Part shown: positions 15,641-46,173 of the stretch, piece by piece
How the letters are laid out: each line of letters starts with the position of its first letter
Numbering within the stretch: position 1 is the stretch's first letter
Virus record (IMG/VR): IMGVR_UViG_2617270940_000006
Source: a virus
Lineage: Duplodnaviria; Heunggongvirae; Uroviricota; Caudoviricetes
Reading direction: 5' to 3' (one strand)
DNA length: 56,409 bases
Position numbers and translations under genes: made by a program
Notes under the pieces: generated by a model
The model's database searches: none
What the model was told of the DNA's origin: nothing
Seen by the model: only the letters and a program-made list of their open reading frames with translations

Positions 15641-16058
15641 TGAATCGCCACAGGTTTAATAGACACCTCAGAGTCATTTAAGATGACTTAAAGAGAGGTG
15701 CCCATGAGCGGTAAGCGTTATCCCGAAGAGTTTAAAATTGAAGCAGTCAAACAGGTTGTTGATCGCGGTTATTCTGTTGCCAGCGTTGCAACACGTCTCG
15801 ATATCACCACCCACAGCCTTTACTCCTGGATAAAGAAGTACGGTCCGGATTCTTCCACTAATAAAGAACAGTCAGATGCTCAGCGTCTCCAGAAAGAGCT
15901 GAAGCGGGTTACCGACGAACGGGACATATTAAAAAAAGCGCGGCGTACTTCGCAAAGCTGTCCGACTGAGGTACGCCTTTATCCGTGACAACACCCATTG
16001 CTGGCCTGTCCGACTGCTTTGTCGGGTGCTGGATGTGCATCCGAGTGGTTTTTACGCC
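15641..16058 (+). mobile_element. IS3-family element, left-end fragment
   Basis: Terminal repeat TGAATCGCCACAGGTTTAATAGACACC, OrfA, an A6G slippery site near 15930 and about 30 codons of OrfB in the -1 frame, then backbone sequence. Confidence 0.75.
15698..15988 (+). CDS. IS3-family transposase OrfA
   Basis: HTH-containing OrfA (YPEEFKIEAVKQV...LKKA) ending at a frameshift window. Confidence 0.8.
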   Translation: MPMSGKRYPEEFKIEAVKQVVDRGYSVASVATRLDITTHSLYSWIKKYGPDSSTNKEQSDAQRLQKELKRVTDERDILKKARRTSQSCPTEVRLYP

Positions 16059-16156
16059 TGGCTTCTTCGTATAGCAGACTATTGCGCTCGATATAATAAG
16101 TAGATACTTACTTATTTTTCTGAAAGAATACTTTCATCTGTTAGTCAGGAGTTGCT

Positions 16157-16969
16157 ATGAAAGAAGAATTTCAGAAGTTAGTCTGCGACATCATCGACAA
16201 ATCCGGCGTAGAAATTGATACAGAAGAGCGCCAGAAGATTATCGACGAGGCGATCCAAACTGCGCTGGAGCATATCGCCACGTCCGTGAGCGCCGCACCT
16301 CTTTCGGAAGGCTCGAAATACATGCAGGTCTGGGTTCGTTTTGGAGAGTCCCCGGAGTTGCCAGGTGTTAAGCAGAAACGCGCGGCACTTGTGGCGTTCT
16401 CTCGCGAGATGAAAGACGCAACGGTCGAAGTGAGTACCGGTGCATGGTACGACGGTCGCATTGTCTACACTAATCAGACTGTCTACACCAATCAGACTGT
16501 GTGCGATGAAGGTGAACGGTTTGAGGATATTGTCGACGCAACTCTTCGCACGCTCAAAGTCAGAGCTGGTGTGGCGGATGACCCGTCCATCGCGGCGTTC
16601 CTGAGTATTGTCGAACAGTCTGAAGTTACCGAGCGCGTAACAGATCTGACAACTCCACCTGGTTTGCTGGAATTGGTGGTCAGTGGCGATATCAAAAAAG
16701 CCGTTGAGCGCATTCGTGAGGTGGAATACGGCATTATCTGCGATATGTGCCGCAGCGACTTAGACCTGGTGCGCATCATTGTCGACGCGGGTCAGGCATG
16801 TGACGGAGTACTCGCCAGTTTTGCAGGGCAAGTGGCTCGTCTGGCCAACGAATTACCCATGATTAAACAAGAAGCCAAATCCTACGCCGTCCACCATGCC
16901 AACGATTTACTGGACCCATACCGGTTCGAAGCTGCTCAGGACAAAATGACTGGCTGGGCGACCTGGTAA
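16157..16969 (+). CDS. Hypothetical protein
   Basis: 270-aa ORF preceded by a class A motif and followed by a GC hairpin plus T-run at 16988-17008; contains an 18-bp tandem duplication. Confidence 0.5.
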   Translation: MKEEFQKLVCDIIDKSGVEIDTEERQKIIDEAIQTALEHIATSVSAAPLSEGSKYMQVWVRFGESPELPGVKQKRAALVAFSREMKDATVEVSTGAWYDGRIVYTNQTVYTNQTVCDEGERFEDIVDATLRTLKVRAGVADDPSIAAFLSIVEQSEVTERVTDLTTPPGLLELVVSGDIKKAVERIREVEYGIICDMCRSDLDLVRIIVDAGQACDGVLASFAGQVARLANELPMIKQEAKSYAVHHANDLLDPYRFEAAQDKMTGWATW

Positions 16970-19403: not shown

Positions 19404-19709
19404 ATGAGCAATTTGACTTCCTTCGACTGGTGGCTGGCAACCTACCTTGTTGCGGCCGGCTTCGGATTTGCCTTTTACGTTGGTCAGTTAATCGTAAAGC
19501 TACTGCTGATAAGATTCGCCAGCCATAAACGCATAGACGACGGTCTGTGGCGTCTGGGGTCCCTGTTAGAGACGCATTACGGCGAACTCAAGGAAAACGA
19601 AACTATCACTATTCAAGCGAAGCGTTTTACCGCCATCATCACGAGAACTCCGGAACAAAAGGGGAGCCTGATCAAAAAGATAGCAACTAAACGCATTACA
19701 GATAGATAA
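19404..19709 (+). CDS. Small membrane protein
   Basis: 101-aa ORF with an N-terminal TM helix; overlaps the preceding small ORF by ATGA. Confidence 0.4.
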   Translation: MSNLTSFDWWLATYLVAAGFGFAFYVGQLIVKLLLIRFASHKRIDDGLWRLGSLLETHYGELKENETITIQAKRFTAIITRTPEQKGSLIKKIATKRITDR

Positions 19710-20452
19710 GTATTTACTTACTTATCTAATATGTATAAGATCACTTTGTTTTCGTTGAGATGCGACTGTTTGAACGTTAAATATAACTGCAAACGAAGAT
19801 GCATACCTGGCAGTAGCCTAAGAAGCCAAACACCAGCGAGGTCAGTTTCCAGCCTCGTCACCAAAATGGGACACACTGAGCGAGTGTGATTGCAGAACGC
19901 AGAATAGGGCATATTGCACCATCCATGCCCTATTCAATGAAGTAACAGAATGGGCGGTTGGTTTCATCATTCCATTCACCCATCCCGGTTTCAGCTGACC
20001 GTCCATTCTGTTACGTCATTTCCATTACTTATGTCGTTTATACTTGGGTTAAAAGCGGCGACGTAACCCGGCTGACTTGGTTAGTCAGCACATAACGTTG
20101 AGATCACTGATTTTTCTTAAAATCATACAGGCGATTCCACATAGCTGTAGCGACTGATCAATATGTTGGGTTGAACATTAATCGGTTCAGTGATCTCAAC
20201 GTTGTGAAAGCAGGATTAATTAACCCTCTAGTGAAAACATTGTTGCCTTTATTGCCCCTGGCTTCACAACATGTATGATTCCATACATCCAATAAGATTG
20301 AAGAATCTAACGGCAATCAACCACCGAGAAAGATTCCAGATCTTCGCTCATATGAGCGAGCCACATACCTCGTCTGGCACTAACGTAAAGTGCAAGTTGC
20401 GGGAAAGTTTCTGGCTGCCTGGTTGTCCATAAGCTAGTACCGCCGCGAAAAT

Positions 20453-21597: not shown

Positions 21598-22701
21598 ATG
21601 AAAAACACTTTTGATAAAGCACGCGCAGCAGAAAACACCTCTAGAGAAGCCATCGAGTATCTCGAACGCGCTTCCGGTTTGTCAGCAGTGTCGACCACCA
21701 ATTTCGACGGTGACATGTCGTTTTCTTCCGCATTCATGTTATTCACTCGCTTATCTTTGCTGATAACGAGACGTCGACCTGAAATAGCTGTTCATTGTAT
21801 TTTGATACATGTAATGCCGCATATCTGTGAAGTAAAAGTAAGTGACATTAGTAGGGTTTTAGTCAACCAGCTGGTGAACCCATTAATACTTGAGGGCAAG
21901 ATCGTCCAGGGCAGACGTGTGTTCTCGCTGATGAAGCAGTTTCTCAGTTGGTGTGCATTTCAGGGCTTAATTGATACATCCCCATTGAACGATATGTCGC
22001 TTAACAGAGTAGCCGGTGGCGCGAAGCCCACGCCGCGCGAGCGCAAACTGACCGACGCAGAGGTCTGGGTCTTTTGGAATGTATGGGACTACTTCAACGT
22101 ATGTGAGGGTACAAAGTGGGCGGCCAGATTATGCCTTGTAGCGGCCAGACGACCAGATGAAGTGCTCCGAGCTAAAAGATCAGAATTCAACCTCGAATAT
22201 AATTTATGGAATCAAGGAACGAGGAATAAATCGGCTCGCCAGCACTCGTTACCATTAAGCCCGCTAATGCGCAAATGTGTTGAGGAGCTGATCAAATACG
22301 GAAAAGGCAGCCAGTGGCTTGTTCCTTCAAACAAGAAACAGGGTGAGGATGTGCCAATGTCTAAGGTGGCCATATCACAGGCGTTGAGAAGGATTTTAGA
22401 ACGTCCAGAGTTGATGGAGCTTGAGCCATTTACCCCCCGAGATTTGCGTCGTACTGCGCGTAGTTACTTCCCCGCGTTAGGCATAAGTCAGGAGGTATCC
22501 CGCAAAATTATGAACCACAGTCTTGAGGGGATAGATCGAGTATACGATCGACACGATTATATAGACGAGATGCGAGACGCCTTAAACAGTTTTTCGGCGT
22601 ACATCGCATCAATCGTAGAGAAACAGGATTTAGAGGAGATAGATCATAAGTTCAAGGGAGATCGACTCGCTACTGAGCTAATCCGTGTAAATTTCTCATA
22701 G
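21598..22701 (+). CDS. Tyrosine site-specific recombinase
   Basis: C-terminal catalytic region with RD...LRRTARSYF and HSLEGIDRVYDRHDY, consistent with the R-H-R-Y signature. Confidence 0.8.
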   Translation: MKNTFDKARAAENTSREAIEYLERASGLSAVSTTNFDGDMSFSSAFMLFTRLSLLITRRRPEIAVHCILIHVMPHICEVKVSDISRVLVNQLVNPLILEGKIVQGRRVFSLMKQFLSWCAFQGLIDTSPLNDMSLNRVAGGAKPTPRERKLTDAEVWVFWNVWDYFNVCEGTKWAARLCLVAARRPDEVLRAKRSEFNLEYNLWNQGTRNKSARQHSLPLSPLMRKCVEELIKYGKGSQWLVPSNKKQGEDVPMSKVAISQALRRILERPELMELEPFTPRDLRRTARSYFPALGISQEVSRKIMNHSLEGIDRVYDRHDYIDEMRDALNSFSAYIASIVEKQDLEEIDHKFKGDRLATELIRVNFS

Positions 22702-23094
22702 CGACTTGATTGCCTCAACAACCCGCTCCGACGCACCACGTTGGTCACCGAAACGTCGACGGAAGGCTTCCAGAACTAGTTTTTCATCTTTAGTCAGAGG
22801 GGCTGTGCCTTCGTCGCGAAAAAACGCTAACAGCTCTGGATGACGCTCTTCCAGCACCATTAGCATCAATCGGACCGAATCGGCATCCAATGCTTTAGCC
22901 AACGCTCTGACCTTGTCGATCGGAAGCGGGATTTTGCCGCTCTTGATAAGTGAAAGATTGTTAGGGTTTTTATAGCCTGCTTCTTTCGCGATGGTCGCCT
23001 GGCTTTTCGGAGAAATCGCGATTAAAGCGTCAATGTAAGCAGCGTAGCGACCTACTTTAGCTTCTGTTGTTTCGTTGGTAGCCATAATTATCAA
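22696..23094 (-). CDS. HTH (XRE/Cro-CI-like) transcriptional regulator
   Basis: 132 aa; helix-turn-helix segment TIAKEAGYKNPNNLSLIKSG; convergent with the recombinase gene. Confidence 0.6.
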   Translation of the reverse strand: MIIMATNETTEAKVGRYAAYIDALIAISPKSQATIAKEAGYKNPNNLSLIKSGKIPLPIDKVRALAKALDADSVRLMLMVLEERHPELLAFFRDEGTAPLTKDEKLVLEAFRRRFGDQRGASERVVEAIKSL

Positions 23095-23665
23095 CCTGCG
23101 TGTTTTGATTTTATTTGGTAAGTGCTTACTGATATTACATCAAAGGTTAGTGTTGTAAAGACTTATCTATTTTTTTACGTAGGTTTACTGACCGCAAAAG
23201 GCTTCATTAATAGACAACTATCTAAAAAATAACTCATTTAAGAACTTAAAACTAAGTTGTGTTTGATATATAAGTATTCCGTATTGATACAATAGGTAGT
23301 AGTATTGCAAGGCATTTACGTGTTCAGTTGGATGATATGAAATGAAAAAAATAACTTCTAATTTGATCGCCCTTGAGGTCGGACATACGGTTTCAATTGA
23401 CGATGATGGGGCAGCAGCCATACTCACTGAACTGCCAACAAAGTCTTTGTTACTTGACATGAAAGACGCAACCGCATACATCTTTGAGCTAAAGGGCAAG
23501 TGCTTCACTCTCATCAATACCGGCTGCGGTTCAGTAGCCGTCCGCACAATTTAACCCCCCCTCCCATCCTCTCTAGCGCCTGTACGAACAGATTAGATGC
23601 CTGTTCGTACAGTGATAAATTACGCACATCAGAAAACAAATTGTTTTAACAACAAGGGAATTCTA

Positions 23666-25897
23666 ATGTCCAAAAAAACCACCAAAGCTGTACTGAAAGA
23701 GGTGCAGGATTTTCGCGACTGTGTAAAACGAGTTGTAGCGATGCTTTCAGGTAAACAGATACCTGTTGCAGAACGAGGCAATGAAGCATATGTCCGCTAT
23801 AACCGGCGCGGCGAACCAGTGCTGGTAAACATCCCATCTATACCGGACGACGCGTCGCCAACCCTCATGAACGCAGTGCGTGGTTTTCTCGACCATGAGG
23901 TGGCCCATATTCTCTTTACTGAACCGAAAGTCGCAATGCAGATGCACGAAAGAGGAAAGGCTCCGTCTACGGGGCTTTGGAATGCGCTGGAAGACGTTTT
24001 TATTGAACGCAGAATGGGGCAGGTCTTTAACGGAACCCGGCGTAATTTACTTGCAACACAGAGTCTGGTTATCGACAAATACTTCAGGAATAAAGTACCA
24101 GAAGCGGTTTTAGCCTGTCACGGAGACCAGCGTGAATTGTTTTTGAAATTCTTCCTTTGCCCGGTCGTCCGCGCCTGGGATGGACAAAGCCCCTTCATCG
24201 ATTTTATGGAAGAACACTGGCGCCTTATCGAGAGGCCGGTAGCCTTACTAAAGGAGCATGGTATAGACGTGGCCGTTCGCAATATGTCGAACACTGAGGA
24301 TTGCGTGAAGGTCGCTGCTGCTATAGCCCAAATCATGCAGGATATGAAAGACAAGCCAGAGGGCAAATTACCAGAACTTAAATCATCTGCCAGAAAGCCG
24401 TCGGAGAGCAAAGACGAGTCCGAGGAAACGCCAGAATCAGGTGACGAGCCGTCTCATGGTGACTCTGCATCTAAGCCTGCCAAAGGCGAAGGCGATGACA
24501 AGGAAGAACGAGAAGATGATGCATCAGAAGAGGAAGATTCTGGGGATTCCGATTTGCCTGATTCATTAGATAAGGACTTACCTACACACGTTAAAGATAT
24601 TAGTGATACAGAAAGTAAATATACAGAAGCAGGCCACGAAGAGTCAGGAGACACCCCAGAATCCGATGCTATCGGCATGAAATCAAGTGACTCTGACACC
24701 GATGATGATGGCGGTGAGGACTCCGATACTGATCGTGGGGAAACTGAAGAAGAAGACGTCGAAGGCAAAAAAAATAAAGATGGTGCGGAAGTGCCCAAAG
24801 ACAGTGAGTCTGGCTTTGTTCCTGCGCCGGATGAAATGACTCTGGAGGAGGCGCTAAAGGCGCTCGACGAGATGGAAGACGGAATCGGTGAAATGACCGA
24901 AGACGCACTGTCGGCCACCATCAGCAAAGAGCTTATGAGCGTCTCACCTTCTGATTATCGGCCATACGATCGATCATACGACTTTATCGGGTTGATTGAT
25001 GGAGCCGAAGAGCATGTGAAGCGCACCAGAAAGACGTTCGGTGCAATACCAATGCACTCACCAGTCGACCGCTACCGTATGGTGCCAGAAGGCAGAAAAC
25101 TCTTTGAACTGAAAATCGAAAAACATCTGTCTGCAGGCGTTTCTTCGACGCTGGCCAAAGACCTGGAGCGGGCCATCGCCAGCCGCAACCGAGTTCAGTT
25201 TATACCTGGTCAGAGGCGTGGGCGGATACATGGCGCAAGCCTGTATCGTCTGGCAATGAACGACGACCGAGTGTTCCGCAAGAAGGAAGACCATAGAGCG
25301 GTGAACGCGTGTGTCCAGCAGGTCATCGACTTGTCCGGCTCAATGGATGGCGTGAAGATTCAACTGGCCCTAGCCAGTGCCTATACCATTGCGGATGCTT
25401 TAGATCGTATCAATGTCCCCAACATCATCACCGGCTTTACCACGTTCGGTAGCCCAGATTATGAAACCAGGTCGAAGCGCGGGTTTACACGCTTCGAGGC
25501 GCTCATGCTGCCCATTATCAAAAACTGGAATGAGAAAGCAAACTCTCCAGAGATCCGTGCTCGCATGGGATGCGTATGTGAGACGTTCCCCCTGCTCAAT
25601 AACGTCGATGGTGAGAGTGTCGCGCAACTGGCTACCCTGTTTGCAGGGCGAATGGAGGACAAAAAGATCATGCTGGTTATGAGTGATGGGGAGCCATGTG
25701 CTACAGGTAGTGGATTCCATCAGCATTTACGAACCGTCACCAAAGAAATTGAGACCTTGAGCGACATCGAACTGATGGCTATCGGCATTCTGACCGACGA
25801 ACCACGGCGTTACTACAAAAATTACGCACTGGTTAACAGTGTTGAAGAGTTAGGGCCGTCAGTCGTCACTGAGTTATCTCGTATCATTCTTGGGTAA
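23666..25897 (+). CDS. VWA-domain protein (CobT-like) with long acidic linker
   Basis: MIDAS-type DxSxS motif (DLSGSMDG) in the C-terminal domain; about 180-aa D/E/S-rich low-complexity stretch; start placed at the ATG with the conserved context. Confidence 0.65.
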   Translation: MSKKTTKAVLKEVQDFRDCVKRVVAMLSGKQIPVAERGNEAYVRYNRRGEPVLVNIPSIPDDASPTLMNAVRGFLDHEVAHILFTEPKVAMQMHERGKAPSTGLWNALEDVFIERRMGQVFNGTRRNLLATQSLVIDKYFRNKVPEAVLACHGDQRELFLKFFLCPVVRAWDGQSPFIDFMEEHWRLIERPVALLKEHGIDVAVRNMSNTEDCVKVAAAIAQIMQDMKDKPEGKLPELKSSARKPSESKDESEETPESGDEPSHGDSASKPAKGEGDDKEEREDDASEEEDSGDSDLPDSLDKDLPTHVKDISDTESKYTEAGHEESGDTPESDAIGMKSSDSDTDDDGGEDSDTDRGETEEEDVEGKKNKDGAEVPKDSESGFVPAPDEMTLEEALKALDEMEDGIGEMTEDALSATISKELMSVSPSDYRPYDRSYDFIGLIDGAEEHVKRTRKTFGAIPMHSPVDRYRMVPEGRKLFELKIEKHLSAGVSSTLAKDLERAIASRNRVQFIPGQRRGRIHGASLYRLAMNDDRVFRKKEDHRAVNACVQQVIDLSGSMDGVKIQLALASAYTIADALDRINVPNIITGFTTFGSPDYETRSKRGFTRFEALMLPIIKNWNEKANSPEIRARMGCVCETFPLLNNVDGESVAQLATLFAGRMEDKKIMLVMSDGEPCATGSGFHQHLRTVTKEIETLSDIELMAIGILTDEPRRYYKNYALVNSVEELGPSVVTELSRIILG

Positions 25898-25992
25898 TAG
25901 TTTTACCCTTAAAAATAAGTAACTACTTACTATACAGCCTAATATATTTCTATAAGATATACCCCACAAACGACAAACAGTAAGGAAAAAAC

Positions 25993-27228
25993 ATGACCGC
26001 TACTGCACTACAGCAAGAAGAACATTTGCCGGAAGCCATCGTCTGCAAGTGGTGTGGCAAATCCTTTCATTACCTGAAATCCCATATCTCTATGGGCCGT
26101 TGCGAGAATATTCCTGAGTCTGCGAAGGGTCTGGACGTGGACGAAGTGGTGAAGATGTACACCTCTGCGTTTCCAGATGAACCAACGATCTCTCGCACGG
26201 CACTGGCCAAACTCAATGAGAAGCGTGCCGAAAAGCATTCAGGCGAAGGAAAAGTAGCGGAGATTAGCGCACATCCGGGCTACGCAGGAACGGTCGAATA
26301 CAAGACCGAACTGGTGGCCGCGCACGAGCTGCTTGGCGTAACGATCAAAGAGCTGGGAACGCCACGCGGAAAGCCACTACAGGTGACAGTCAACGTCAAC
26401 ACGCCATATCCGGAGTTCGTACCGGAAGCGAAGAAGAACTATGTGTATGGCGACTTCGACCTGATTAAAGACATCTTCATGATGCTGGAAATCGGAATCC
26501 CGGGTTATCTCTGGGGCCATGCAGGAACCGGTAAATCTTCTCTTCCTACGCAGCTATGTGCCCTGCTAAATCGACCACTGATCCGCGCCCAGCATACGGC
26601 GTCTATGGAGGAAGCGCACGTTACAGGCCAGATCCTCGCTCGCGATGGTTCCACCTATTTCGAACCGGGTTTACTAGCGCTGGCGATGAAAAATGGTTGG
26701 GTTTACCTCGCTGATGAATATGACTTCGCGTTCCCGCAGATTCTGGGTGTGTATCAGCCAGTTCTTGAAGGAGAGCCGCTGATCATCAAAGAGGCAACTG
26801 CGGACTGGCGCCGCATCACCCCGCATAAACGCTTTGCCTTCATTGGCACTGGCAACACTAACGGCTCTGGCGACGAAACAGGTCTCTATCAAGGCACAAA
26901 CATCCAGAACGCAGCGAACTTCTCGCGTTTTGGCATTGTTTCAAACGTGAAGTACATGAGTACGAAGGCAGAAGTCAACATGCTGGCTGAAGCAGGCGTC
27001 ATCCGCGAATACGCCGAGAAGATGGTGAAGTTCGCGAATCTTATCCGTGAAGGTTATGAAAAGCATCAGATTAGCCAGCCAATCGGGCCTCGTGAGCTGC
27101 TGCTGTCCGCCAAAATCGGAATGATGCGCGGTGATTTCTCTGCCGGCATCGAAAAGTCGTTTATCAATAAACTTCCATCCACGTCTGCACAGGCAGCGCG
27201 TGAAGTGGTTCAGAAGATCTTTGGTTAA
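25993..27228 (+). CDS. AAA+ ATPase (CobS/MoxR-like)
   Basis: Walker A GHAGTGKSS, Walker B VYLADEYDF; N-terminal Cys/His cluster. Confidence 0.7.
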   Translation: MTATALQQEEHLPEAIVCKWCGKSFHYLKSHISMGRCENIPESAKGLDVDEVVKMYTSAFPDEPTISRTALAKLNEKRAEKHSGEGKVAEISAHPGYAGTVEYKTELVAAHELLGVTIKELGTPRGKPLQVTVNVNTPYPEFVPEAKKNYVYGDFDLIKDIFMMLEIGIPGYLWGHAGTGKSSLPTQLCALLNRPLIRAQHTASMEEAHVTGQILARDGSTYFEPGLLALAMKNGWVYLADEYDFAFPQILGVYQPVLEGEPLIIKEATADWRRITPHKRFAFIGTGNTNGSGDETGLYQGTNIQNAANFSRFGIVSNVKYMSTKAEVNMLAEAGVIREYAEKMVKFANLIREGYEKHQISQPIGPRELLLSAKIGMMRGDFSAGIEKSFINKLPSTSAQAAREVVQKIFG

Positions 27229-27408
27229 TCGTGCGTAAAGGATGTTTCGGCTCTCTTATCGCAGCGTCTGAAACTGGCAGTGCTTGTTTGGCATGTCCGG
27301 ATAGACCCGAGTGCCACCAGTCAGCCAAAGAGGTTGCGATTTCGATGTATGGGAAGTTCGTTGGCTTCCCCAATGACAAAATCAAGAAAACCAGAAAGGT
27401 AAAAGCAC

Positions 27409-30400
27409 ATGAAGGCTCTGATGGTCAGAACTGACTTCTCCCTGGGAGAGTCAGCTCTAAAAGCAGAAAACGCGGTAAAAATCGCAAGAGACGCTGGCTA
27501 CACGGCTGTCATTTCCGCCGACAGCATGAATATTGCCAGTGTAATCCCTCTGCAACGTGCCGCTGGCGACGACATGTCGGTAATTTGTGGCGTTAAGCTG
27601 AATGTTGTCGACGATCCGACATACGAGCACCGCGCTCGCTTGGCGAAAGAGTCAGGAAGATGTATGGAATCATTAGTTCGTGATCGCAGCTACTGCTTCA
27701 CGGCACTGATAAAGAATGAACAAGGTTATCGCGACGTGTGCGAACTGATGACCTTAGCGAACAAGCGCGAGCAATTCTACTTTGTCCCGCGTCTGGCGCT
27801 TGAGCAGCTGACAGCCGCATATGCCAAAGGCAACATCATCCTGCTGACGTCCGACATTGGCAGTGTATTCCAGCGCCGGGACTTCGCAAAAATTATCGGG
27901 ACGCTGGTCACAGCTGGCGGTCGCGATAACTTCTACAGCGTGGTTTATCCGCACCCTACCCCATTCTACGACCAGATTAACGTCCGGGCGATGAAAGTGG
28001 CGAGCGCACTGAAAATAGAGCCAGTGGCGTTCTATCCCGCTTATTACGAAGCGATCGACGACGCTGACATTAAAGACATTGCGCACATGGTTACGAACAA
28101 CATCAAAATCGACCAGCCGCATCGTCTGCGCATCCCCCACCAGCGAGATAACGCTGTTAATGGTCGTCGCCATCTCCTTGAAGCGCTGAAAGCCTTCTCC
28201 GTTCGCATGGGCGTACCGGTAACAGCTGCAATGGCCTCAACAACGCAGGACACCATTATTGAAGCCTGCACATGGCGCTGGCATGAACTGCCACCAGCAC
28301 TGCCCAAGATGGCAGACGACGAGCCTGCAACGCTGATGAAGCTGGCTGTCGCGGGGCTACGCAAGCGTCTAACTACTAAAGAGTTTGGCTACACACCACC
28401 GGCTTCTGAGCACCGAGTGTATGTTGAGCGACTGAAGTACGAAATGGACACGCTGACCCGCCTGGGCTTCTGTGGCTACTTCCTGATGGTGCGCGACCTG
28501 ATGAATCACAGCCGTGAAACTGGCATTCCTGTCGGGCCAGGTCGTGGTTCCTCTGCCGGTTCTCTGGTGGCGTGGTGCATAGGCATAACCAACGTCGATC
28601 CTATCCGTCACGGTCTTCTGTTTGAGCGTTTCATCAACCCTGAACGTCTTGACTTACCGGATGCGGATCTGGACTTCAGCCAGGCACGTCGTCATGAGGT
28701 GATCGAGTATCTGAATGAACGCTATGGCGAAGATTACGTTGCCGGTATTCCAAACTTCACCTATCTGGGCGCCGCTTCTGCGCTGCGAGACACTGCGCGT
28801 ATTTACGGTGTCGACGCTGCGGATATGGCGGTATCCAAAGAGTTCAAGAATCTGGAAGACGATAGCCTATCTCTGGAAGAGCTGCGCGAACAACTGGCCA
28901 GCCTGGACAAATACACCACGAAAAACCCGGAAGCGTTCAAAGCGGCGTGTAAGCTACAAAGCCTGATGCGTGGTTTTGGCCGTCATGCAGCGGGGATGAT
29001 CGTCGCTGGCGTTCCACTGGTAGAGCGCACGCCCGTCGAGCTGCGTGGCAACGCTCGCTGTATTGCATTCGATAAACGTTACTGCGAGGCAATGGGGCTG
29101 ATTAAGCTGGACGTTCTCGGTCTGGCAACGCTCGATCTGCTGGATAGCGCGAAACGCTACATCAAAGAGAGTACCGGGGAAGACATCAATCTCGATGCTA
29201 TCCCACTGGACGATCGCAAAGTTCTGGATGGGTTCGCTGCAGGGTACACTCAGGGCGTATTCCAGCTGGAGTCCGGCCCCATGCGCAAGCTGCTTAAAGA
29301 TCTGGGCGGTGGCATTGAGCCAATGAGCTTCAAAACCGTTGTCGCCACGACCGCACTCTTCCGACCTGGCCCGATTCAATCAGGCATGTTGGACGACTAT
29401 GTCTCCGTGGCCAAAGGCTTCATGGCTCCACATTCAATTCATCCGCGTCTTGAGGAAGTCACCCGGGAGACTAATGGTGTTTTGCTCTATCAGGAACAAA
29501 TCATGCAAAGTTCCCGAGTACTTGCCGGGTTCTCTATGGCCGAAGCAGACGCTCTGCGTTCCGCTATCGGTAAAAAGAACATGGATAAGATGAAAGCGAT
29601 CGGCAGCGATTTTGTAGAACGAGCACAAGCAGGCTGGGTGACACTGTCACTCAAAAATGGAGGTACTGTAGAGGTTCACAAACACGCAAAACTGGATTGC
29701 TCAGACGGTAAGCGTAGAAGCTACAGCGAGGCTATTAGTGACGGCATAGACTACGTGGAGATCGTCTCTGAACAAGAAGGTCTCAGTAAGGAAAAAGCCC
29801 AAGAAATATGGGACGCCTTTGAGAAGTTCGGTGGATATGCCTTCAACAAATCACACAGCGTTGCTTATTCTTTAATCAGCTATCAGTCTATGTGGTTAAA
29901 GACACATTACCCTGCTGAGTTCTTCGCTGCTGCGCTCACCATTCTGGGCGAGGATAAGCACCAGGGCTTAGTTAAAGATGCGCTGACCTATGGCATTCGC
30001 GTATTGCCACCAGACGTTAACGTGTCATCTAACCGAATTGAGATCCGCACGCTGGAAGACGGCAGTCAGGTTCTGTATGCACCATTCTCTGCTGTGAAGG
30101 GCTGCTCTGAGAATGGTTGCCAGGCCATCATGAGAGCGCGTGAGAAAGTTGGCGGCAAATTCGAGTCACTTGAGCAATTTGAGGAAGCGGTCGAGAAGCG
30201 TGCATGTAACAGCCGGGTACGCGAATCACTGCAAAAAGTCGGTGCGTTCGCATCGATTGAGTCTGGCAGTCTGCCAGCGACAGATCCGGAACGGCTGCGC
30301 GACCAGGCAGAGTTGATGGGTAATCTGGTGATCGACGCTGTAAAAGCCTCTCGACCGTTCGAGATGACCCCTAAGCGCTCTGCTGAAGTAAATGTACTGA

Positions 30401-30915
30401 TGACGCGCATGGCGGCCGAAATGGGGCTGGGAGACGATCTAATCCGTCCAAGCATTGGTATTAAGCCAAAAATCATGGTTATTCTGGACAACGCGAACGG
30501 CAATGATGGGCGTACCGGCTACTTCATGGAGAACGGTTACGACGACTTTAAGGCGAAGTTGCTTACTGCCGGCGATCTGCGTATGGGCGATCTCTACGTC
30601 ACCGGCGTGTGTAAAAAGGTGAAGGACAAAGAGAAGGACTACACCAAAGACGAGATCGGTCAGTTCACCGACTTTATGCGTGAAGAGATCAATCTGGTGC
30701 GTCCGACCTATGTACTGACGTGTGGCAGCCGGGCGACGTCGCTCTTCAACAACAAGAGCAAACCATCCGACCTGGTTGGACGCAAAGAGTATCTGCCGGA
30801 GCTGGATGCGACCGTTTTCTACGGATTTAACCCGAATATCCTTTACTTCCGACCGGAAGAAGGAGAGCGACTGGAGGCCATTCTGACTGATATTGCGGAG
30901 ACGATAAATAAGTAA
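27409..30915 (+). CDS. DNA polymerase III alpha-like replicative polymerase
   Basis: 1168 aa; N-terminal PHP-like region and polymerase core (GPGRGSSAGSLVAW) typical of DnaE-family enzymes. Confidence 0.9.
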   Translation: MKALMVRTDFSLGESALKAENAVKIARDAGYTAVISADSMNIASVIPLQRAAGDDMSVICGVKLNVVDDPTYEHRARLAKESGRCMESLVRDRSYCFTALIKNEQGYRDVCELMTLANKREQFYFVPRLALEQLTAAYAKGNIILLTSDIGSVFQRRDFAKIIGTLVTAGGRDNFYSVVYPHPTPFYDQINVRAMKVASALKIEPVAFYPAYYEAIDDADIKDIAHMVTNNIKIDQPHRLRIPHQRDNAVNGRRHLLEALKAFSVRMGVPVTAAMASTTQDTIIEACTWRWHELPPALPKMADDEPATLMKLAVAGLRKRLTTKEFGYTPPASEHRVYVERLKYEMDTLTRLGFCGYFLMVRDLMNHSRETGIPVGPGRGSSAGSLVAWCIGITNVDPIRHGLLFERFINPERLDLPDADLDFSQARRHEVIEYLNERYGEDYVAGIPNFTYLGAASALRDTARIYGVDAADMAVSKEFKNLEDDSLSLEELREQLASLDKYTTKNPEAFKAACKLQSLMRGFGRHAAGMIVAGVPLVERTPVELRGNARCIAFDKRYCEAMGLIKLDVLGLATLDLLDSAKRYIKESTGEDINLDAIPLDDRKVLDGFAAGYTQGVFQLESGPMRKLLKDLGGGIEPMSFKTVVATTALFRPGPIQSGMLDDYVSVAKGFMAPHSIHPRLEEVTRETNGVLLYQEQIMQSSRVLAGFSMAEADALRSAIGKKNMDKMKAIGSDFVERAQAGWVTLSLKNGGTVEVHKHAKLDCSDGKRRSYSEAISDGIDYVEIVSEQEGLSKEKAQEIWDAFEKFGGYAFNKSHSVAYSLISYQSMWLKTHYPAEFFAAALTILGEDKHQGLVKDALTYGIRVLPPDVNVSSNRIEIRTLEDGSQVLYAPFSAVKGCSENGCQAIMRAREKVGGKFESLEQFEEAVEKRACNSRVRESLQKVGAFASIESGSLPATDPERLRDQAELMGNLVIDAVKASRPFEMTPKRSAEVNVLMTRMAAEMGLGDDLIRPSIGIKPKIMVILDNANGNDGRTGYFMENGYDDFKAKLLTAGDLRMGDLYVTGVCKKVKDKEKDYTKDEIGQFTDFMREEINLVRPTYVLTCGSRATSLFNNKSKPSDLVGRKEYLPELDATVFYGFNPNILYFRPEEGERLEAILTDIAETINK

Positions 30916-34454: not shown

Positions 34455-36797
34455 ATGGCAAAAGGCAAATCCGCACTGGCACTGGCGCTGAAAAAGAAAA
34501 TCGGCAGCAATGACGAGATTCAGAAGGTCTCCCACTGGATTGACTCCGGTTTCCCTCCACTGAACAAAGCCATTTCCGGACGTTACGACGGTGGTTTTCC
34601 GTGTGGGCGTATCGTTGAAGTCTTCGGGCCACCAAGCGCGGGGAAATGTGTTACCGCAGACACCATGCTGCTGACGGAGCGTGGAATGGTAACAGTGAAA
34701 GAACTGTTTGAGATTGAGGGGCACAAAGCAACATGCACTACTCGCGATGTAGAGCATAACGTTGGACTCATCAATGAAAATGGCGTGATAGAGAAGACCT
34801 CACACCTGACATGGAACAACCGTCGCAAATTCAAGCGCATTAAGCTGGCATCAGGGGGTTACATCGAGGCTACGTTCCGTCACCCAATTCGTGTGGTTGA
34901 CGACTTAGGCAATATCGTCTGGCGGCATGCTGAAAAAATCAGTGTAGGCGACACGATTCCTTCAATGGTTGGCACACATCAATTCGGCGATCAGCACTTG
35001 GATGCCAATATCGCAAAACTGATGGGCTATTTAATTGCTGACGGATACGTGGCCTCTGAAAATTCTGTGCATTTTTCTAACACAGATCCATTCATCAAGG
35101 ATGAGTACTACCGCCTCATTTCGCTGGTATCAGACAAGATGCCAGTTACGAGAAAACATAACGGCTCGGAAGACCATGTGCTGTTTAGCAAAGAGGTGCG
35201 TTCGCTGCTTTTTAAAGAATATGGTCTGGAGTATGAGAAAGCTGCTGGCAAGCAGGTTCCGTTGAGTGTGCGTCGCGCCAATAGCGAGGCTCAAATTGCA
35301 TTCCTTCGCGGCTACTTTGAGCTGGAATGCCACGTCAATGATGGTCGCTGCATTGAGGTTGTGAGCGCGAGTGGGCTGCTGCTACAGCAAATTCGCCTCA
35401 TGCTCCTGAATCTGGGGATTGCGTCAACTATCTCTGAAAAACACGTCGCAGGTTATAAAAACATATATTACCGGCTGTCATTCAGTGGCTCTAACTACGA
35501 CCTTTTCCTGTCAACGATTGGGTTCGAGTCTCCGGCTCGTTTAGCAGTGGCAACCAAACGGGACATTAGTTTTGACCGCACTTATTTAGGCTACGTTCCG
35601 CACATCAGCGGCTTAGTGAAATCACTCTACGAGTCACTCACCAAGACCTCTCGTAAAGACTACGTTCTGGTAGATCACGTTATTGGCCGCGGCGATCGTG
35701 TCGGAATAGACAAACTGCGAGAAATCTATGTCTCCTTCATTGGCAGAAAGAATCGTTTTAACGAGCATCTGTTTGCACAACTGGCAGCGGTAATTGACTC
35801 TAACTTGTTCTACGACGAAGTCGTGGCTATTGAGGAAGGTGAAGCACCAACGTTCGACGTAGCGATGCCGGAAACACACTCTTTCTGGTCTAACGGGATT
35901 ATCAGCCACAACACATTCCTCGCGACGGCTGCGATGGTGTCAGCACAAAAACAGGATGGTCTGGCCGTATTCCTTGACCACGAAAACAGTTTCGACGTTG
36001 GTCTGGCGGTAGCGAACGGACTGAACGCCGACGAAGACGACGGTCAGTGGGTCTACAAACAGCCGGATACCTTCGAAGACTCCGTAGAGCTGATCGGCAC
36101 AATCCTCAAGCTGGTGCGCGACGAAGAGCTTATTCCGGAAACAGCCCCTATCTGCATCGTAGCCGACTCTCTGGCGTCGATGGTTCCAAACTCGAAGGCT
36201 GAGAAGTTCGACAAGATGGCAGAAGGCACTGCGAAGGACAAAGATCAGCTGAACATGAACGACAACACGGCGCTGGCGCGCGCGACAAGTGCGAACTTCC
36301 CTACTCTGGCGCTTTGGGCGCGTAAGTACAACGCGTGCATCATCTTCTTGAACCAGGTGCGTACCAAAATTGGTGTGATGTTTGGCGATCCGACTACGTC
36401 TCCGGGTGGCGACTCTCCGAAGTTCTACGCGTCGGTGCGCATCCGTCTGGGTGCATCCGTCATGAAGGATGGCAAAGAGAAGATCGGACAGGACGTTGGC
36501 GCCGAGTGCATTAAAAACAAAGTCGCGCCTCCGTTTGGCAAATGCTCATGGAAATTCTACTTCGACCCGACTCGCGGGCTGGACGTCGTCGAGTCTCTGG
36601 TTGAATACATGCTGGAGGAAGGATACCTGCCCAAGAGCGCCAGCGGGCGTGTGGAAATTGGCGAGAAGAAATACACCAAATCGCAGATCGTCGAGATGTA
36701 CCGCGAGAAGCCACTCCCGGAAATCATCGCAGCACTCCAGGCGATAGACGAACGGCGAGCGAAAGAGTCGTCACCAGCAGAGACAGAAGAAGCGTAA
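34455..36797 (+). CDS. RecA/UvsX-like recombinase interrupted by an intein
   Basis: The Walker A motif is split: GPPSAGK then Cys at codon 65, and it resumes as TFLATAAMV after ...SHN at codon 486. Removing codons 65-486 leaves a 358-aa RecA-size protein with a contiguous GPPSAGKT. Confidence 0.85.
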   Translation: MAKGKSALALALKKKIGSNDEIQKVSHWIDSGFPPLNKAISGRYDGGFPCGRIVEVFGPPSAGKCVTADTMLLTERGMVTVKELFEIEGHKATCTTRDVEHNVGLINENGVIEKTSHLTWNNRRKFKRIKLASGGYIEATFRHPIRVVDDLGNIVWRHAEKISVGDTIPSMVGTHQFGDQHLDANIAKLMGYLIADGYVASENSVHFSNTDPFIKDEYYRLISLVSDKMPVTRKHNGSEDHVLFSKEVRSLLFKEYGLEYEKAAGKQVPLSVRRANSEAQIAFLRGYFELECHVNDGRCIEVVSASGLLLQQIRLMLLNLGIASTISEKHVAGYKNIYYRLSFSGSNYDLFLSTIGFESPARLAVATKRDISFDRTYLGYVPHISGLVKSLYESLTKTSRKDYVLVDHVIGRGDRVGIDKLREIYVSFIGRKNRFNEHLFAQLAAVIDSNLFYDEVVAIEEGEAPTFDVAMPETHSFWSNGIISHNTFLATAAMVSAQKQDGLAVFLDHENSFDVGLAVANGLNADEDDGQWVYKQPDTFEDSVELIGTILKLVRDEELIPETAPICIVADSLASMVPNSKAEKFDKMAEGTAKDKDQLNMNDNTALARATSANFPTLALWARKYNACIIFLNQVRTKIGVMFGDPTTSPGGDSPKFYASVRIRLGASVMKDGKEKIGQDVGAECIKNKVAPPFGKCSWKFYFDPTRGLDVVESLVEYMLEEGYLPKSASGRVEIGEKKYTKSQIVEMYREKPLPEIIAALQAIDERRAKESSPAETEEA
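34647..35912 (+). other. Intein (422 aa) with LAGLIDADG homing-endonuclease domain
   Basis: Begins with Cys, ends with His-Asn, and is followed by Thr. Two LAGLIDADG-like blocks (LMGYLIADGYV, LRGYFELECHV). Confidence 0.8.
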
Positions 36798-39945: not shown

Positions 39946-41267
39946 TGGAGCGTTTAGCATTGATGCCGAAATATGAGGATTATGTAGATTCTGGAGTTGA
40001 ATGGTTAGGGGATTTACCGAGCCATTGGGACGCAGTAAAAATGAAGTTTCTTTTCAAAGATACGTCGATGAAAAACAAGCCTAACGAAACTTTATTATCT
40101 GTTACACAAAGTCAAGGTGTTGTTCCCAGAGAGTGGGTAGAAAACAGAATGGTTATGCCATCTGGCAATCTAGAAAGCTTCAAGTTCATTGCAAAAGGTG
40201 ACTTTGCTATAAGCCTTCGTTCCTTTGAAGGTGGTTTGGAGTATTGTCATCATGATGGAATCATAAGCCCTGCTTATACGGTGTTAAAAACTAAGAAAGA
40301 TTATCTACTTGCAGGATATTACAAATATTTGTTTAAAAGTCAGACTTTTATTTCAGAGTTACAAACATCGATTGTAGGGATTCGTGAAGGAAAAAACATC
40401 AGTTATGAGGAGTTGCAATATTCACTTCTTCCTATTCCGGCTGAAGAAGAACAAACCCGTATCGCCAACTTCCTCGACAAGAAAACCGCTCTAATCGACG
40501 AAGCGATTTCGATCAAAGAGCAGCAAATTAGCCTGCTGAAAGAGCGTAAGCAGATCATCATCCAACAGGCGGTGACCCAAGGGCTTGATCCCAATGTGCC
40601 AATGAAAGACTCCGGTGTGGATTGGATTGGAGATATTCCAGAGCATTGGGAAGTTGTGCCTCTAAAAAGGTTGGCGGTCTTGAGCCCTTCTGTGAAAGTT
40701 TCAAATAGAAAGTCCAAAGAATTAGTTACTTTCTTAGCGATGGAAAAGGTTTCAACAGATGGATTTATTGATCAAGATACATTAATGCCTATATGTGATG
40801 TGAGCCAAGGTTTTACGGTTTTTAACCGGGGGGATGTGATTGTTGCAAAAATTACACCTTGCTTTGAAAATGGGAAATCTGCTTGGCTTAACAATCTTCA
40901 AACTGAGTTTGGATACGGCTCAACCGAGTTTCACGTTTTAAGATGTGGTCAGAGAATTATAGGAAGTTTTCTCTACTTAATCGTTAGTTCGCCCCTTTTT
41001 CTTAATGCCGGTGAGGCTATGATGACTGGTTCAGCTGGTCAGAAGCGCGTGCCTAGTTCATTTATCCAAAACTTTCCTACCGCAATTCCCGGAGTTGCAG
41101 AGCAAGAAAAAATAGTATCAAAGGTAAAAGAGCTGTTTTCACAGATTGATGTTGTTGTGGCTTCTACGGTAAATCAAATCGAAAAGCTCAAAGAATACAA
41201 AACCACCCTGATCAACAGCGCCGTGACAGGAAAAATAAAAATCACCCCGGAAATGGTTGAGCAATAG
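39945..41267 (+). CDS. hsdS: Type I restriction-modification specificity subunit (HsdS)
   Basis: 440 aa with two repeated target-recognition-like halves and conserved central/C-terminal helices; start overlaps the hsdM stop. Confidence 0.8.
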   Translation: MERLALMPKYEDYVDSGVEWLGDLPSHWDAVKMKFLFKDTSMKNKPNETLLSVTQSQGVVPREWVENRMVMPSGNLESFKFIAKGDFAISLRSFEGGLEYCHHDGIISPAYTVLKTKKDYLLAGYYKYLFKSQTFISELQTSIVGIREGKNISYEELQYSLLPIPAEEEQTRIANFLDKKTALIDEAISIKEQQISLLKERKQIIIQQAVTQGLDPNVPMKDSGVDWIGDIPEHWEVVPLKRLAVLSPSVKVSNRKSKELVTFLAMEKVSTDGFIDQDTLMPICDVSQGFTVFNRGDVIVAKITPCFENGKSAWLNNLQTEFGYGSTEFHVLRCGQRIIGSFLYLIVSSPLFLNAGEAMMTGSAGQKRVPSSFIQNFPTAIPGVAEQEKIVSKVKELFSQIDVVVASTVNQIEKLKEYKTTLINSAVTGKIKITPEMVEQ

Positions 41268-41276
41268 GACGCGAAT

Positions 41277-42440: not shown

Positions 42441-42454
42441 GGGAATTTACAATT

Positions 42455-46173
<3,719 letters not shown>

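Follow-up and report, generated by a model that had tools for sequence, protein, structure and literature searches.

The window, by which we mean the whole stretch of 56,409 nucleotides that was analysed, comes from the E. coli plasmid pYUXYEH3934-1, an SSU5-like phage-plasmid, and carries a gene for a CobT-like VWA protein followed by one for a CobS-like AAA+ ATPase (Table 1). Both open reading frames are present on the + strand in the ORF list of the window; the CobT-like frame stays open upstream to 23597, and the annotated start is shared with SSU5. The pair is not a new sighting: this plasmid, SSU5 and about 780 plasmid records already carry its annotation, and the literature describes a viral cobST cluster. 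The label it routinely receives is 'porphyrin/cobalamin biosynthesis'.

Table 1. Features of the locus, with their positions in the window.
Feature	Position	Strand	Basis
HTH (CI-like) repressor candidate, divergent, beside early operon	22696..23085	-	similarity to prophage genes
Small 70-aa ORF, first of rightward operon	23342..23554	+	ORF list, annotation
Perfect 12-bp inverted repeat CTGTACGAACAG, 9-nt spacer	23580..23612	.	sequence reading
CobT-like adaptor protein, 743 aa	23666..25897	+	Pfam, PHROG, PDB matches
Putative zincin-fold N-domain, aa 1-230	23666..24355	+	HExxH, invariant E109/E114
Acidic low-complexity disordered linker, aa 232-428	24359..24949	+	composition
Predicted 'shaft' segment, about aa 505-547	25178..25306	+	homology only
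VWA domain with MIDAS	25307..25897	+	CobT_C match
CobS-like AAA+ ATPase, 411 aa	25993..27228	+	AAA_5, phrog_249, PDB CobS
Putative Ros/MucR-type zinc-finger domain, aa 13-70	26029..26202	+	homologue consensus, Pfam, hhalign
CobS-type AAA+ module, aa 142-411	26416..27228	+	alignment to solved CobS
Small Cys-rich ORF, 67 aa, between CobS-like and DnaE	27231..27434	+	ORF list
DnaE-type polymerase fused to family-4 uracil-DNA glycosylase	27409..30915	+	Pfam, TIGR00758

The divergent HTH gene is 27-38% identical to divergent HTH genes lying directly upstream of the CobT-like gene in four prophages (L005, L010, L011 and L012); the prophage genes match Pfam HTH_3/HTH_19, and the gene of the window has a weak PADLOC match to capH (E 0.003). 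The same four prophages have a small ORF at the position equivalent to that of the 70-aa ORF, for which a family search gave no match. The inverted repeat lies 54 nt upstream of the CobT-like start. The word CTGTACGAACAG occurs twice in the window (0.22 expected) and is conserved at the same position in SSU5, and the repeat could be an operator or an RNA hairpin.

Downstream of the pair, the 67-aa Cys-rich ORF (SSU5_051 in the SSU5 annotation) overlaps the DnaE start and has no match in a family search; other lineages have at this position a sigma70_r2-like or uncharacterised gene of 167-225 aa. The polymerase matches Pfam PHP, DNA_pol3_alpha, finger and HHH_6, with the glycosylase (TIGR00758, UDG_fam4) at aa 1048-1164, and is followed by a gp32-type SSB, a 5'-3' exonuclease and RecA, which bears out the replication-module setting that had been proposed from the sequence alone. 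On the + strand, a scan for terminator-like sites gave none in the gaps that separate the CobT-like gene from the CobS-like gene and the latter from DnaE; a single weak match falls inside the CobT-like gene.

Domain organization of the two proteins

The CobT-like protein matches Pfam CobT (PF06213; E 4e-35, 122 bits against a gathering threshold of 26.1), CobT_C/VWA (PF11775; E 1e-108, 362 bits against 21, aa 536-743) and phrog_1576 (1084 bits), and its VWA half alone matches CobT in the PDB (9uka_G, 5e-19). The ATPase matches AAA_5 (E 4.5e-15), phrog_249 (2e-108) and, in one continuous alignment, solved CobS (9ujv, E 1.5e-25). The size of the E-values excludes chance for both family assignments. 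A MoxR-class AAA+ gene thus adjoins a VWA gene with an intact MIDAS, as the sequence-only reading had it. Phrog_1576 followed by phrog_249 is the T-then-S pair of the viral CobST, or metallopeptidase-vWA plus MoxR, class, and the window has the features of that class: adjacent T then S, an HExxH zincin-type N-domain and a CobS-type ATPase. Phages S-PM2 and JSF27 share this arrangement.

The N-domain of the CobT-like protein carries an HExxH motif at aa 77-81 (nt 23894-23908), kept in 125 of 126 viral representatives and absent from the three cellular CobTs compared. The domain appears to be a zincin fold retaining the HExxH...E metalloprotease signature that cellular CobT, as judged by the three examined, has lost. 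The CobT-like protein of Pseudomonas phage nickie lacks the motif, so that proteolysis cannot be required universally. The linker that follows is 35% D+E and 14% S with a net charge of about -48, whereas the remaining protein is 13% D+E. The long D/E/S-rich segment picked out by the sequence-only reading is therefore real, but the term 'unusual' does not hold. Across the 126 viral relatives the linker has a median length of 179 aa (range 27-310) and a median D+E content of 39%, the length differences between SSU5 and near-identical plasmids fall within it, and the counterpart in Brucella CobT is a disordered linker of about 90 aa, unobserved in the structure. Cellular and viral CobT-type adaptors alike have such a linker, which makes it a family trait and not an oddity. 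The segment just before the VWA domain aligns with the cellular CobT stretch immediately ahead of the MIDAS aspartate; in Brucella CobT, residues Q373-R413 are the shaft seen within the CobS ring (CobSTN cryo-EM preprint), and aa 505-547 are predicted to be the shaft that would enter the ATPase ring here. The MIDAS residues are D555-L-S557-G-S559 (nt 25328-25342) and D674; these columns are invariant in our alignment (A2), and DxSGSM is found in 123 of 126 representatives.

In the ATPase, Walker A (GHAGTGKS) lies at aa 175-182 (nt 26515-26538) and Walker B at D241-E242, and R312 and R367 align to the arginine finger R210 and the sensor-2 R271 of CobS. Across 16 diverse homologues, K181, D241, E242, R312 and R367 do not vary. 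With residue roles taken from the Brucella CobS structure paper, the module retains all nucleotide-binding and hydrolysis residues of CobS. It also matches the AAA modules of NorQ, CbbQ and Midasin, and relatives give CbbQ_C matches.

The N-terminal Cys/His cluster noted in the ATPase by the first reading is real (C18-x2-C21-x9-H31-x5-C37, plus H26; nt 26044-26103), with C18, C21, H31 and C37 as candidate ligands. That reading missed both its type and the zincin-type N-domain of the partner. In the homologues the consensus reads CxxCGxxxHxIQxHLKxxH, with ligands spaced as in Ros (0, +3, +13, +18). Of 51 homologous N-termini, 24 match Pfam ROS_MUCR (PF05443) at E<=0.01, the strongest at 4e-8; two relatives, P0095 with 28.9 bits and P0106 with 28.8 bits, exceed the gathering threshold of 25.4, and hhalign of the N-terminus against Ros gives 92.6% probability. 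The finger of the window protein itself is a divergent CCHC variant that reaches 12 bits (E 0.22) on ROS_MUCR; a structural search with an AF2 model of the finger, of moderate confidence, returned no significant neighbour, and one subclade has lost a finger Cys and a finger His. Cellular CobS, which aligns only from residue 142, has no finger, and neither has the CobS of cyanophages or ICP2. The cluster is best read as a zinc finger of the Ros/MucR type, a DNA-binding kind of domain that the ATPase has apparently gained.

Relation to cobaltochelatase

A firm placement of both proteins in the cobalt chelatase families, with cobalamin genes as neighbours, was the outcome named in advance as contradicting the sequence-only reading, and it is not what the searches return. 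On the CobS equivalog model TIGR01650 the ATPase scores 85.4 bits against a cut-off of 558.55, and on the CobT equivalog TIGR01651 the adaptor scores 76.9 bits, through its C-terminal half only, against 759.05; in hhalign to S. meliloti CobT, shaft and VWA alone align. Both proteins are homologues of cobaltochelatase subunits, and by these scores they are not equivalogs. Neither the window nor SSU5 has a cobN or other cobalamin gene, and none was found in eight other related loci from phage, prophage and plasmid contexts.

The phage proteins could nevertheless act as an auxiliary metabolic pair, joining host CobN (or a ChlH-type protein) to form a cobaltochelatase and so raising the cobalamin supply, for example for a B12-dependent ribonucleotide reductase. 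Some hosts of related phages, namely rhizobia and cyanobacteria, have CobN/ChlH. Homology to CobS and CobT is clear, shaft, MIDAS and ATPase sites are kept, and such a role has been proposed for viral cobST clusters (Liu et al. 2021) and in a cyanophage review. We nevertheless consider it highly improbable here. Besides the low equivalog scores and the missing cobalamin genes, the gene order is the reverse of the cellular one, and the HExxH motif and the DNA-binding-type finger, both absent from cellular CobT/CobS, would have no role in a chelatase. To our knowledge, E. coli, Salmonella, Klebsiella and Yersinia have neither CobN nor the aerobic late-insertion pathway.

Gene neighbourhood and proposed role

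The order helicase-primase-ligase-CobT-CobS-DnaE(UDG)-gp32-exonuclease-RecA persists to about 35% identity; SSU5, nickie, Rhizobium phage RHph_N2_6, metagenomic contigs and four prophages share it at 35-46% identity. The 31 phage records with a finger-bearing CobS coincide one for one with the 31 top phage matches to DnaE (31/31). These phages may be one old clade, and the synteny may then reflect in part shared descent rather than functional coupling. In the T4-like cyanophage S-PM2 the pair lies between gp46/47 and gp45/44/62, and in the ICP2-like JSF27 it precedes helicase and Pol I, from which a few small genes separate it; these cyanophage and ICP2-like relatives are independent lineages that keep the pair without DnaE and use other replicases.

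For the MoxR-vWA pair of T4-like jumbo phages, which includes an N-terminal metallopeptidase, Iyer et al. (2021) proposed an assembly role. The analogy drawn was with the archaeal virus ATV, in which tail development depends on MoxR/VWA proteins. The metallopeptidase-VWA architecture of the S-PM2 protein is identical to that of the window protein, so that the pair could be a virion-assembly chaperone with a processing protease. However, in all lineages examined the pair lies in early or replication clusters and never among structural genes, and in the prophages the two are the first large genes beside the repressor. This placement is suggestive, and a DNA-binding-type finger would be unexpected in a capsid or tail chaperone; we judge an assembly role quite unlikely.

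The pair might be a conflict or switch module, either a defence or anti-defence vWA-MoxR system or an ImmA/CapP-like zincin that cleaves the neighbouring HTH repressor and leads to induction. This we hold to be very unlikely: neither protein has a PADLOC match, the pair belongs to a conserved core operon and not to a variable island, and nickie, S-PM2 and the ICP2-like phages are virulent and have the pair with no repressor. Many other zincins resemble the domain as closely as CapP does, and no accessory or effector gene is annotated beside the pair in the loci examined, the neighbours being replication genes. The conflict-system frame offered by the sequence-only reading thus finds no support.

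As a MoxR-VWA pair the two proteins might also be a metal-insertion or maturation chaperone for a phage metalloenzyme, in the manner of NorQ/NorD (nitric oxide reductase) or CbbQ/CbbO (Rubisco), whose client might be a ribonucleotide reductase or the neighbouring DnaE, through its metal-binding PHP domain. The family offers precedent for metalation and remodelling by a motor, adaptor and effector, the MIDAS is intact and linkage to a DnaE with an N-terminal PHP domain is tight. Persistence of the pair without DnaE in the cyanophage and ICP2-like relatives speaks against it, and the conserved protease motif and the zinc finger would be left unexplained, which makes a metal chaperone an unlikely, though not outlandish, answer.

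We tentatively favour, as a possibility short of probable, the reading that the pair is a viral form of the CobST-type AAA+ motor-adaptor (MoxR-VWA class), built in this lineage into the early DNA-replication operon. The zinc finger, the protease-type motif and the position in a replication operon together suggest that it probably acts on DNA-bound proteins and not in vitamin B12 synthesis. That it is DNA-tethered, possibly proteolytic and serves early replication is put forward with the same reserve. With the CobSTN cryo-EM preprint as template, six CobS-like subunits would form a ring gripping the CobT-like shaft, with the zinc fingers tethering the ring to DNA. The flexible acidic linker would let the VWA/MIDAS and zincin domains catch a protein client via an acidic residue, the client occupying the place that CobN has in the chelatase; ATP hydrolysis would remodel the client, and the zincin site might cleave it. 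The most likely client would be a protein bound to DNA that must be removed or matured for the phage to replicate; it might belong to the replisome or be a DNA-binding protein of host or phage. The pair would not insert cobalt into corrin in E. coli. Linker and MIDAS are equally compatible with a metal-delivery role.

A stronger version, to our mind unlikely, would make viral CobST an AAA+ unfoldase that is tethered to DNA and has a zincin protease as its adaptor, a bacterial-virus analogue of p97-SPRTN/Wss1, from which cellular CobST derived by loss of the protease site and recruitment to cobalt insertion. DNA-bound proteins would be stripped or cleaved to let the phage replisome start or get past them; targets might be host nucleoid proteins, stalled complexes, a repressor, or protein-DNA adducts arising at UDG-generated abasic sites.

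Phage 'cobS' is among the auxiliary metabolic genes most frequently counted in viral metagenomics and is read as a viral boost to B12. If the pair is a replication-associated remodelling or proteolytic machine, ecological inferences about B12 would be wrong for a large share of these matches. The phage-plasmid family is common in clinical Enterobacteriaceae, hosts that by established knowledge are without CobN. If the reading is true, a conserved part of a DnaE-based phage replisome that lacks an explanation would become open to direct test, since SSU5-like elements lend themselves to genetics in E. coli and Salmonella. The HExxH motif, intact in viral CobT and lost in the cellular protein, bears on the evolution of ATP-dependent chelatases.

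Comparison with known systems

The whole AAA+ module aligns with CobS (Brucella melitensis, 9ujv-9ukh; Pseudomonas denitrificans-type CobNST), with Walker A/B, arginine finger and sensor-2 in common, and the adaptor follows the four-part plan of CobT: a putative zincin-fold N-domain, a disordered acidic linker, a shaft and a VWA domain with MIDAS. Unlike cellular CobS, the phage ATPase has about 100 extra N-terminal residues with the putative Ros/MucR-type finger. The genes run T then S in phages and S then T in cellular loci, where BolA and J-domain genes flank cobS in place of replication genes, and CobN, part of the CobNST chelatase, has no counterpart in the phage element.

NorQ/NorD, CbbQ/CbbO, RavA/ViaA and Midasin likewise combine a MoxR-class AAA+ motor, hexameric in those systems, with a VWA adaptor that engages its client via the MIDAS. 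The adaptors of these systems have no zincin domain with a catalytic motif, their motors have no DNA-binding-type finger, and they act on known metalloenzymes or ribosome assembly factors. Wss1/SPRTN with Cdc48/p97, and ArdC, offer an analogy only: the structural likeness is one that zincins have in general, and beyond HExxH neither specific homology nor a common motif was found. With Ros/MucR proteins the ligand spacing agrees, and the similarity continues through the helix and a 'Y...FP.AP' segment. The Ros/MucR finger is joined to an oligomerisation domain and here is fused to an ATPase, and among the candidate ligands of the window finger the fourth is a Cys after a 5-residue spacer.

The window's pair is a member of the viral CobST family, which is widespread in tailed viruses. 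The viral cobST of T4-like cyanophages, annotated 'CobS' and 'peptidase' (PHROG 249 and 1576), is likewise a two-gene unit, T before S, in which an HExxH-VWA protein accompanies a CobS-type ATPase. The published interpretations of viral cobST, B12 supply and virion assembly, do not match the host or the gene position found here. The SSU5, nickie and Rhizobium-phage branch differs from the cyanophage pairs in the apparent addition of a zinc finger and in being tied to a DnaE-UDG replicase.

Element, prior annotation and replication operon

The pair region is 100% identical to E. coli plasmid pYUXYEH3934-1 (NZ_CP110979.1), an SSU5-like phage-plasmid fused to an IS26-rich resistance region. The genes for the CobT-like adaptor and the CobS-like AAA+ ATPase share 92% DNA identity with SSU5_049/050 of Salmonella phage SSU5 (label ‘putative porphyrin biosynthetic protein’) and match ~780 plasmid records (Klebsiella, Escherichia, Enterobacter, Yersinia, Salmonella and others), where the usual labels are ‘porphyrin biosynthesis protein’ and ‘AAA family ATPase’; the gene pair is thus an already catalogued object. 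The labels in Escherichia phage Cyrano (OV696614.1, match H10), ‘cobalamin synthetase’ and ‘dimethylbenzimidazole phosphoribosyltransferase’, are a name-collision error, borrowed from the unrelated CobS and CobT of Salmonella nomenclature; a roseophage paper of 2024 has the same collision in its text. The pair belongs to a known, widespread, uncharacterised viral family within the MoxR-VWA class; this branch is a variant, set apart by a predicted Ros/MucR-type finger and by DnaE-UDG as its obligatory partner. The accessible literature holds annotations and hypotheses; no functional experiment on phage or SSU5 CobS/CobT was found in it, nor any description of the finger.

Features of the phage-plasmid backbone and the joined resistance region
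Feature	Position	Strand	Remarks
IS26-bounded multidrug-resistance region	1-~19000		fosA3, blaCTX-M-14, dfrA14/intI1, qnrS1, tet(A); joined to the phage-plasmid backbone
phoH	19541-20314		backbone edge beside the resistance region
Tyrosine integrase gene	21598-22701	+	Phage_integrase, E 6.5e-9; directly upstream of the repressor-like gene, in a plasmid-replicating element; absent at the matching position of SSU5
HTH repressor-like gene	22696-23085	-	homology to divergent genes in four prophages; weak capH-like PADLOC score
Small rightward ORF	23342-23554	+	beside the divergent HTH gene
Perfect 12-bp inverted repeat, CTGTACGAACAG ... CTGTTCGTACAG	23580-23612		9-nt spacer; 54 nt before the CobT-like start codon
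CobT-like protein	23666-25897	+	743 aa
CobS-like ATPase	25993-27228	+	411 aa
DnaE-type polymerase with C-terminal family-4 uracil-DNA glycosylase (UDG) domain	27409-30915	+	UDG domain at aa ~1048-1164
RecA gene interrupted by intein with LAGLIDADG homing endonuclease	34455-36797	+	780 aa; Pfam RecA, Intein_splicing, LAGLIDADG_3
Type I restriction-modification system	37516-45472	+	methylase, S subunit, DUF4268 protein, R subunit; SSU5 counterpart: SPFH/band-7 gene and NinX-like genes

The gene order is helicase, primase, ligase, CobT-like, CobS-like, one or two small genes, DnaE, gp32-type SSB, 5'-3' exonuclease and RecA. It is common to SSU5, Pseudomonas phage nickie, Rhizobium phage-plasmid RHph_N2_6, metagenomic contigs and prophages in four other elements, and persists at 35-46% protein identity. 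Across these loci the family-4 UDG is fused to or split from DnaE; distant relatives have the fusion too, or a split form interrupted by HNH/GIY-YIG endonuclease genes. The two proteins might serve DnaE-PHP or RNR as a chaperone for metal insertion, a role that we regard as unlikely. Homing-endonuclease genes (GIY-YIG and HNH; 11225-12046, 15957-16685 and 863-1372) are scattered through the replication module of a metagenomic relative (L003), where one separates DnaE from the HHH-UDG C-terminal part. RefSeq names the whole RecA-intein ORF of the window ‘LAGLIDADG family homing endonuclease’; the intein is absent from SSU5 RecA (358 aa).

No terminator-like site separating CobT, CobS and DnaE was found on the + strand, and one weak terminator-like match lies inside the CobT-like gene. 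The divergent HTH gene, homologous in the window and four prophages, is located just upstream of the CobT-like gene, so that CobT and CobS are the first large operon genes beside a CI-like repressor. The HTH gene and the small rightward ORF together resemble a CI/Cro-type switch for the replication operon; at this position SSU5 carries tRNA-Asn and small ORFs instead. The 12-bp inverted repeat is conserved in SSU5 and may act as an operator or form an RNA hairpin. A role of the pair itself in conflict or as an induction switch is very doubtful: the PADLOC scan returned no defence-system match for either protein, and the ‘predicted conflict systems’ framing of the sequence-only reading is set aside on this ground. 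ImmA/CapP-like cleavage of a repressor also ranks low, since virulent phages that have no repressor still keep the pair.

The 31 best matches of the window DnaE in the phage collection coincide exactly with the 31 records whose CobS bears a finger. DnaE proteins of actinophages and others (~30% identity or less) lack such a partner. All 31 phages probably belong to a single ancient group, and the synteny is therefore partly shared descent. Cyanophage S-PM2 and the ICP2-like phage JSF27 represent two unrelated lineages with different replicases, and in both the pair is still found among replication genes: flanked in S-PM2 by gp46/47 on one side and by the clamp and clamp-loader genes (gp45/44/62) on the other, and in JSF27 upstream of helicase and Pol I, from which a few small genes separate it.

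The CobT-like protein

As the sequence-only reading had it, a VWA protein is encoded beside an AAA+ ATPase; both ORFs are present. The CobT-like protein matches Pfam CobT (E 4e-35) and CobT_C (E 1e-108), its MIDAS (the metal site of the VWA domain) is formed by D555-x-S-x-S and D674, and hhalign aligns its shaft and VWA half to S. meliloti CobT with 99.9% probability. Residues 232-428 are of low complexity (35% D+E, 14% S, net charge ~-48). This D/E/S-rich segment, described earlier as unusually long, is real but not unusual; canonical CobT shares it, as do 126 full-length viral representatives, in which the linker has a median of 179 residues and 39% D+E. The four parts of CobT recur in the phage protein, so the long acidic linker is a family trait; it is also the site of length differences between SSU5 and near-identical plasmids.

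The N-domain is predicted with a pLDDT of 92.7 and has the topology reported for Brucella CobT_N (a1, a three-stranded sheet, then helices). The zincin motif, H77-E78-x-x-H81, sits on the active-site helix, and the downstream E109 and E114 are invariant. An exhaustive homologue search gave 943 cluster representatives; the best 150 include 126 full-length viral proteins, of which 125 carry HExxH and one, nickie-like, has SEISK instead. The motif is kept in the S-PM2 ‘peptidase’ (HEVGH) and JSF27 CobT (HECYH). Unlike these viral proteins, the three cellular CobT proteins compared have no HExxH at the aligned position [S. meliloti (D-SMALR), Cereibacter (D-AFALR) and Pandoraea (D-AAALQ); an unannotated Burkholderia locus was left out], although all three retain the downstream E...E. 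The similarity of viral and cellular N-domain sequences is seen only via the Pfam CobT model and manual alignment; phmmer of the N-domain against PDB sequences did not recover CobT_N. A metallopeptidase-vWA and MoxR pair was noted in T4-like jumbo phages and a virion-assembly role proposed for it (Iyer et al., 2021); this proposal favours a virion-assembly chaperone-protease, which we consider quite unlikely here.

The CobS-like ATPase and its putative N-terminal finger

The ATPase matches AAA_5 and, less strongly, Midasin, CbbQ and NorQ; residues 142-411 align to the solved Brucella CobS (E 1.5e-25) without large gaps. Walker A (175-182), Walker B (D241-E242), R312 and R367 do not vary among 16 diverse homologues; the counterparts in Brucella CobS are the Walker motifs, the arginine finger R210 and sensor-2 R271 (2026 CobSTN preprint). 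The curated equivalog models for CobS and CobT score far below their cut-offs (TIGR01650, 85 bits against 558; TIGR01651, 77 bits against 759), and neither cobN nor any other cobalamin gene is present in any locus examined. Firm placement in the cobalt chelatase families, which the sequence-only reading had named as the outcome that would refute it, is thus not what is found; on these scores neither phage protein is an equivalog of a chelatase subunit.

The N-terminal Cys/His cluster is real (CKWCGKSFHYLKSHISMGRC, residues 18-37). Cellular CobS (328-331 aa) begins at about residue 100-140 of the phage protein, and the extra N-terminus is conserved in >100 homologues (consensus ‘KIxCxxCGAxVHxIQxHLKxxHPDxTLExYxxxFPDAPLLSExAK’). 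Its ligands are spaced (0, +3, +13, +18) as in the Ros/MucR prokaryotic C2H2 finger. Pfam ROS_MUCR matches 24 of 51 N-terminal segments at E<=0.01 (best 4e-8), two relatives exceed its gathering score of 25.4 (28.9 and 28.8), and the profile of the 51 segments matches a manually entered Agrobacterium Ros sequence with 92.6% probability. By itself the window protein reaches no more than 12 bits. A short insertion precedes the fourth ligand in the SSU5 branch, and that ligand is a Cys; a Cys and a His are lost in one subclade. The AF2 model, of moderate confidence (mean pLDDT 64.7), is a β-hairpin with helices. Foldseek against the PDB gave only weak C2H2-like matches (best E 3.7) and did not confirm a Ros fold, so the assignment is profile-based: the finger is predicted to be of the Ros/MucR type and may bind DNA. 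The idea that another DNA-binding domain replaces it in cyanophage and ICP2 CobS is unsupported; a Pfam scan (E<=1) of their N-termini found none.

E. coli and its relatives are not known to have CobN or the aerobic B12 pathway. Both the finger and HExxH are virus-specific and have no role in the chelatase. The published explanation, in which viral CobST borrows host CobN and raises B12 (Liu et al., 2021), is on these two grounds a poor fit to this element and highly improbable.

A proposed motor and adaptor compared with CobSTN

We tentatively favour, at somewhat short of an even chance, a machine that keeps CobST-type motor-adaptor mechanics, has a different client in place of CobN and acts in early replication. 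An ATP-competent ring would be coupled to the adaptor through the shaft, while the MIDAS and zincin domains, on their long flexible acidic tether, would hold the client and perhaps cut it. The finger would place the machine on DNA, and the operon position points to early replication. The least secure parts of this reading are what the client is and whether proteolysis takes place. Neither HExxH nor the finger is universally required, since nickie has lost the former and cyanophage CobS has no finger. On this reading, what is widely cited as a ‘B12 auxiliary metabolic gene’ would probably be a machine tied to replication, and the system is tractable enough to test this.

In the CobSTN structures (2026 preprint) the CobS hexamer is the motor and CobT the adaptor. 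CobT consists of an M48C-like N-domain, which binds the small subdomain of CobS; a disordered linker of ~90 residues; a ‘shaft’ (Q373-R413) entering the ring; and a MIDAS-bearing VWA domain. CobN is gripped between the two CobT domains. The phage CobT-like protein shares this four-part plan; the phage ATPase differs from cellular CobS in its extra finger-bearing N-terminus. Cellular cobS-cobT stand in the opposite order to the phage CobT-CobS. At the two alphaproteobacterial loci (S. meliloti, 1192-4843 of L009; Cereibacter, 2152-6837 of L015) they adjoin conserved BolA-family and J-domain genes, not cobalamin genes.
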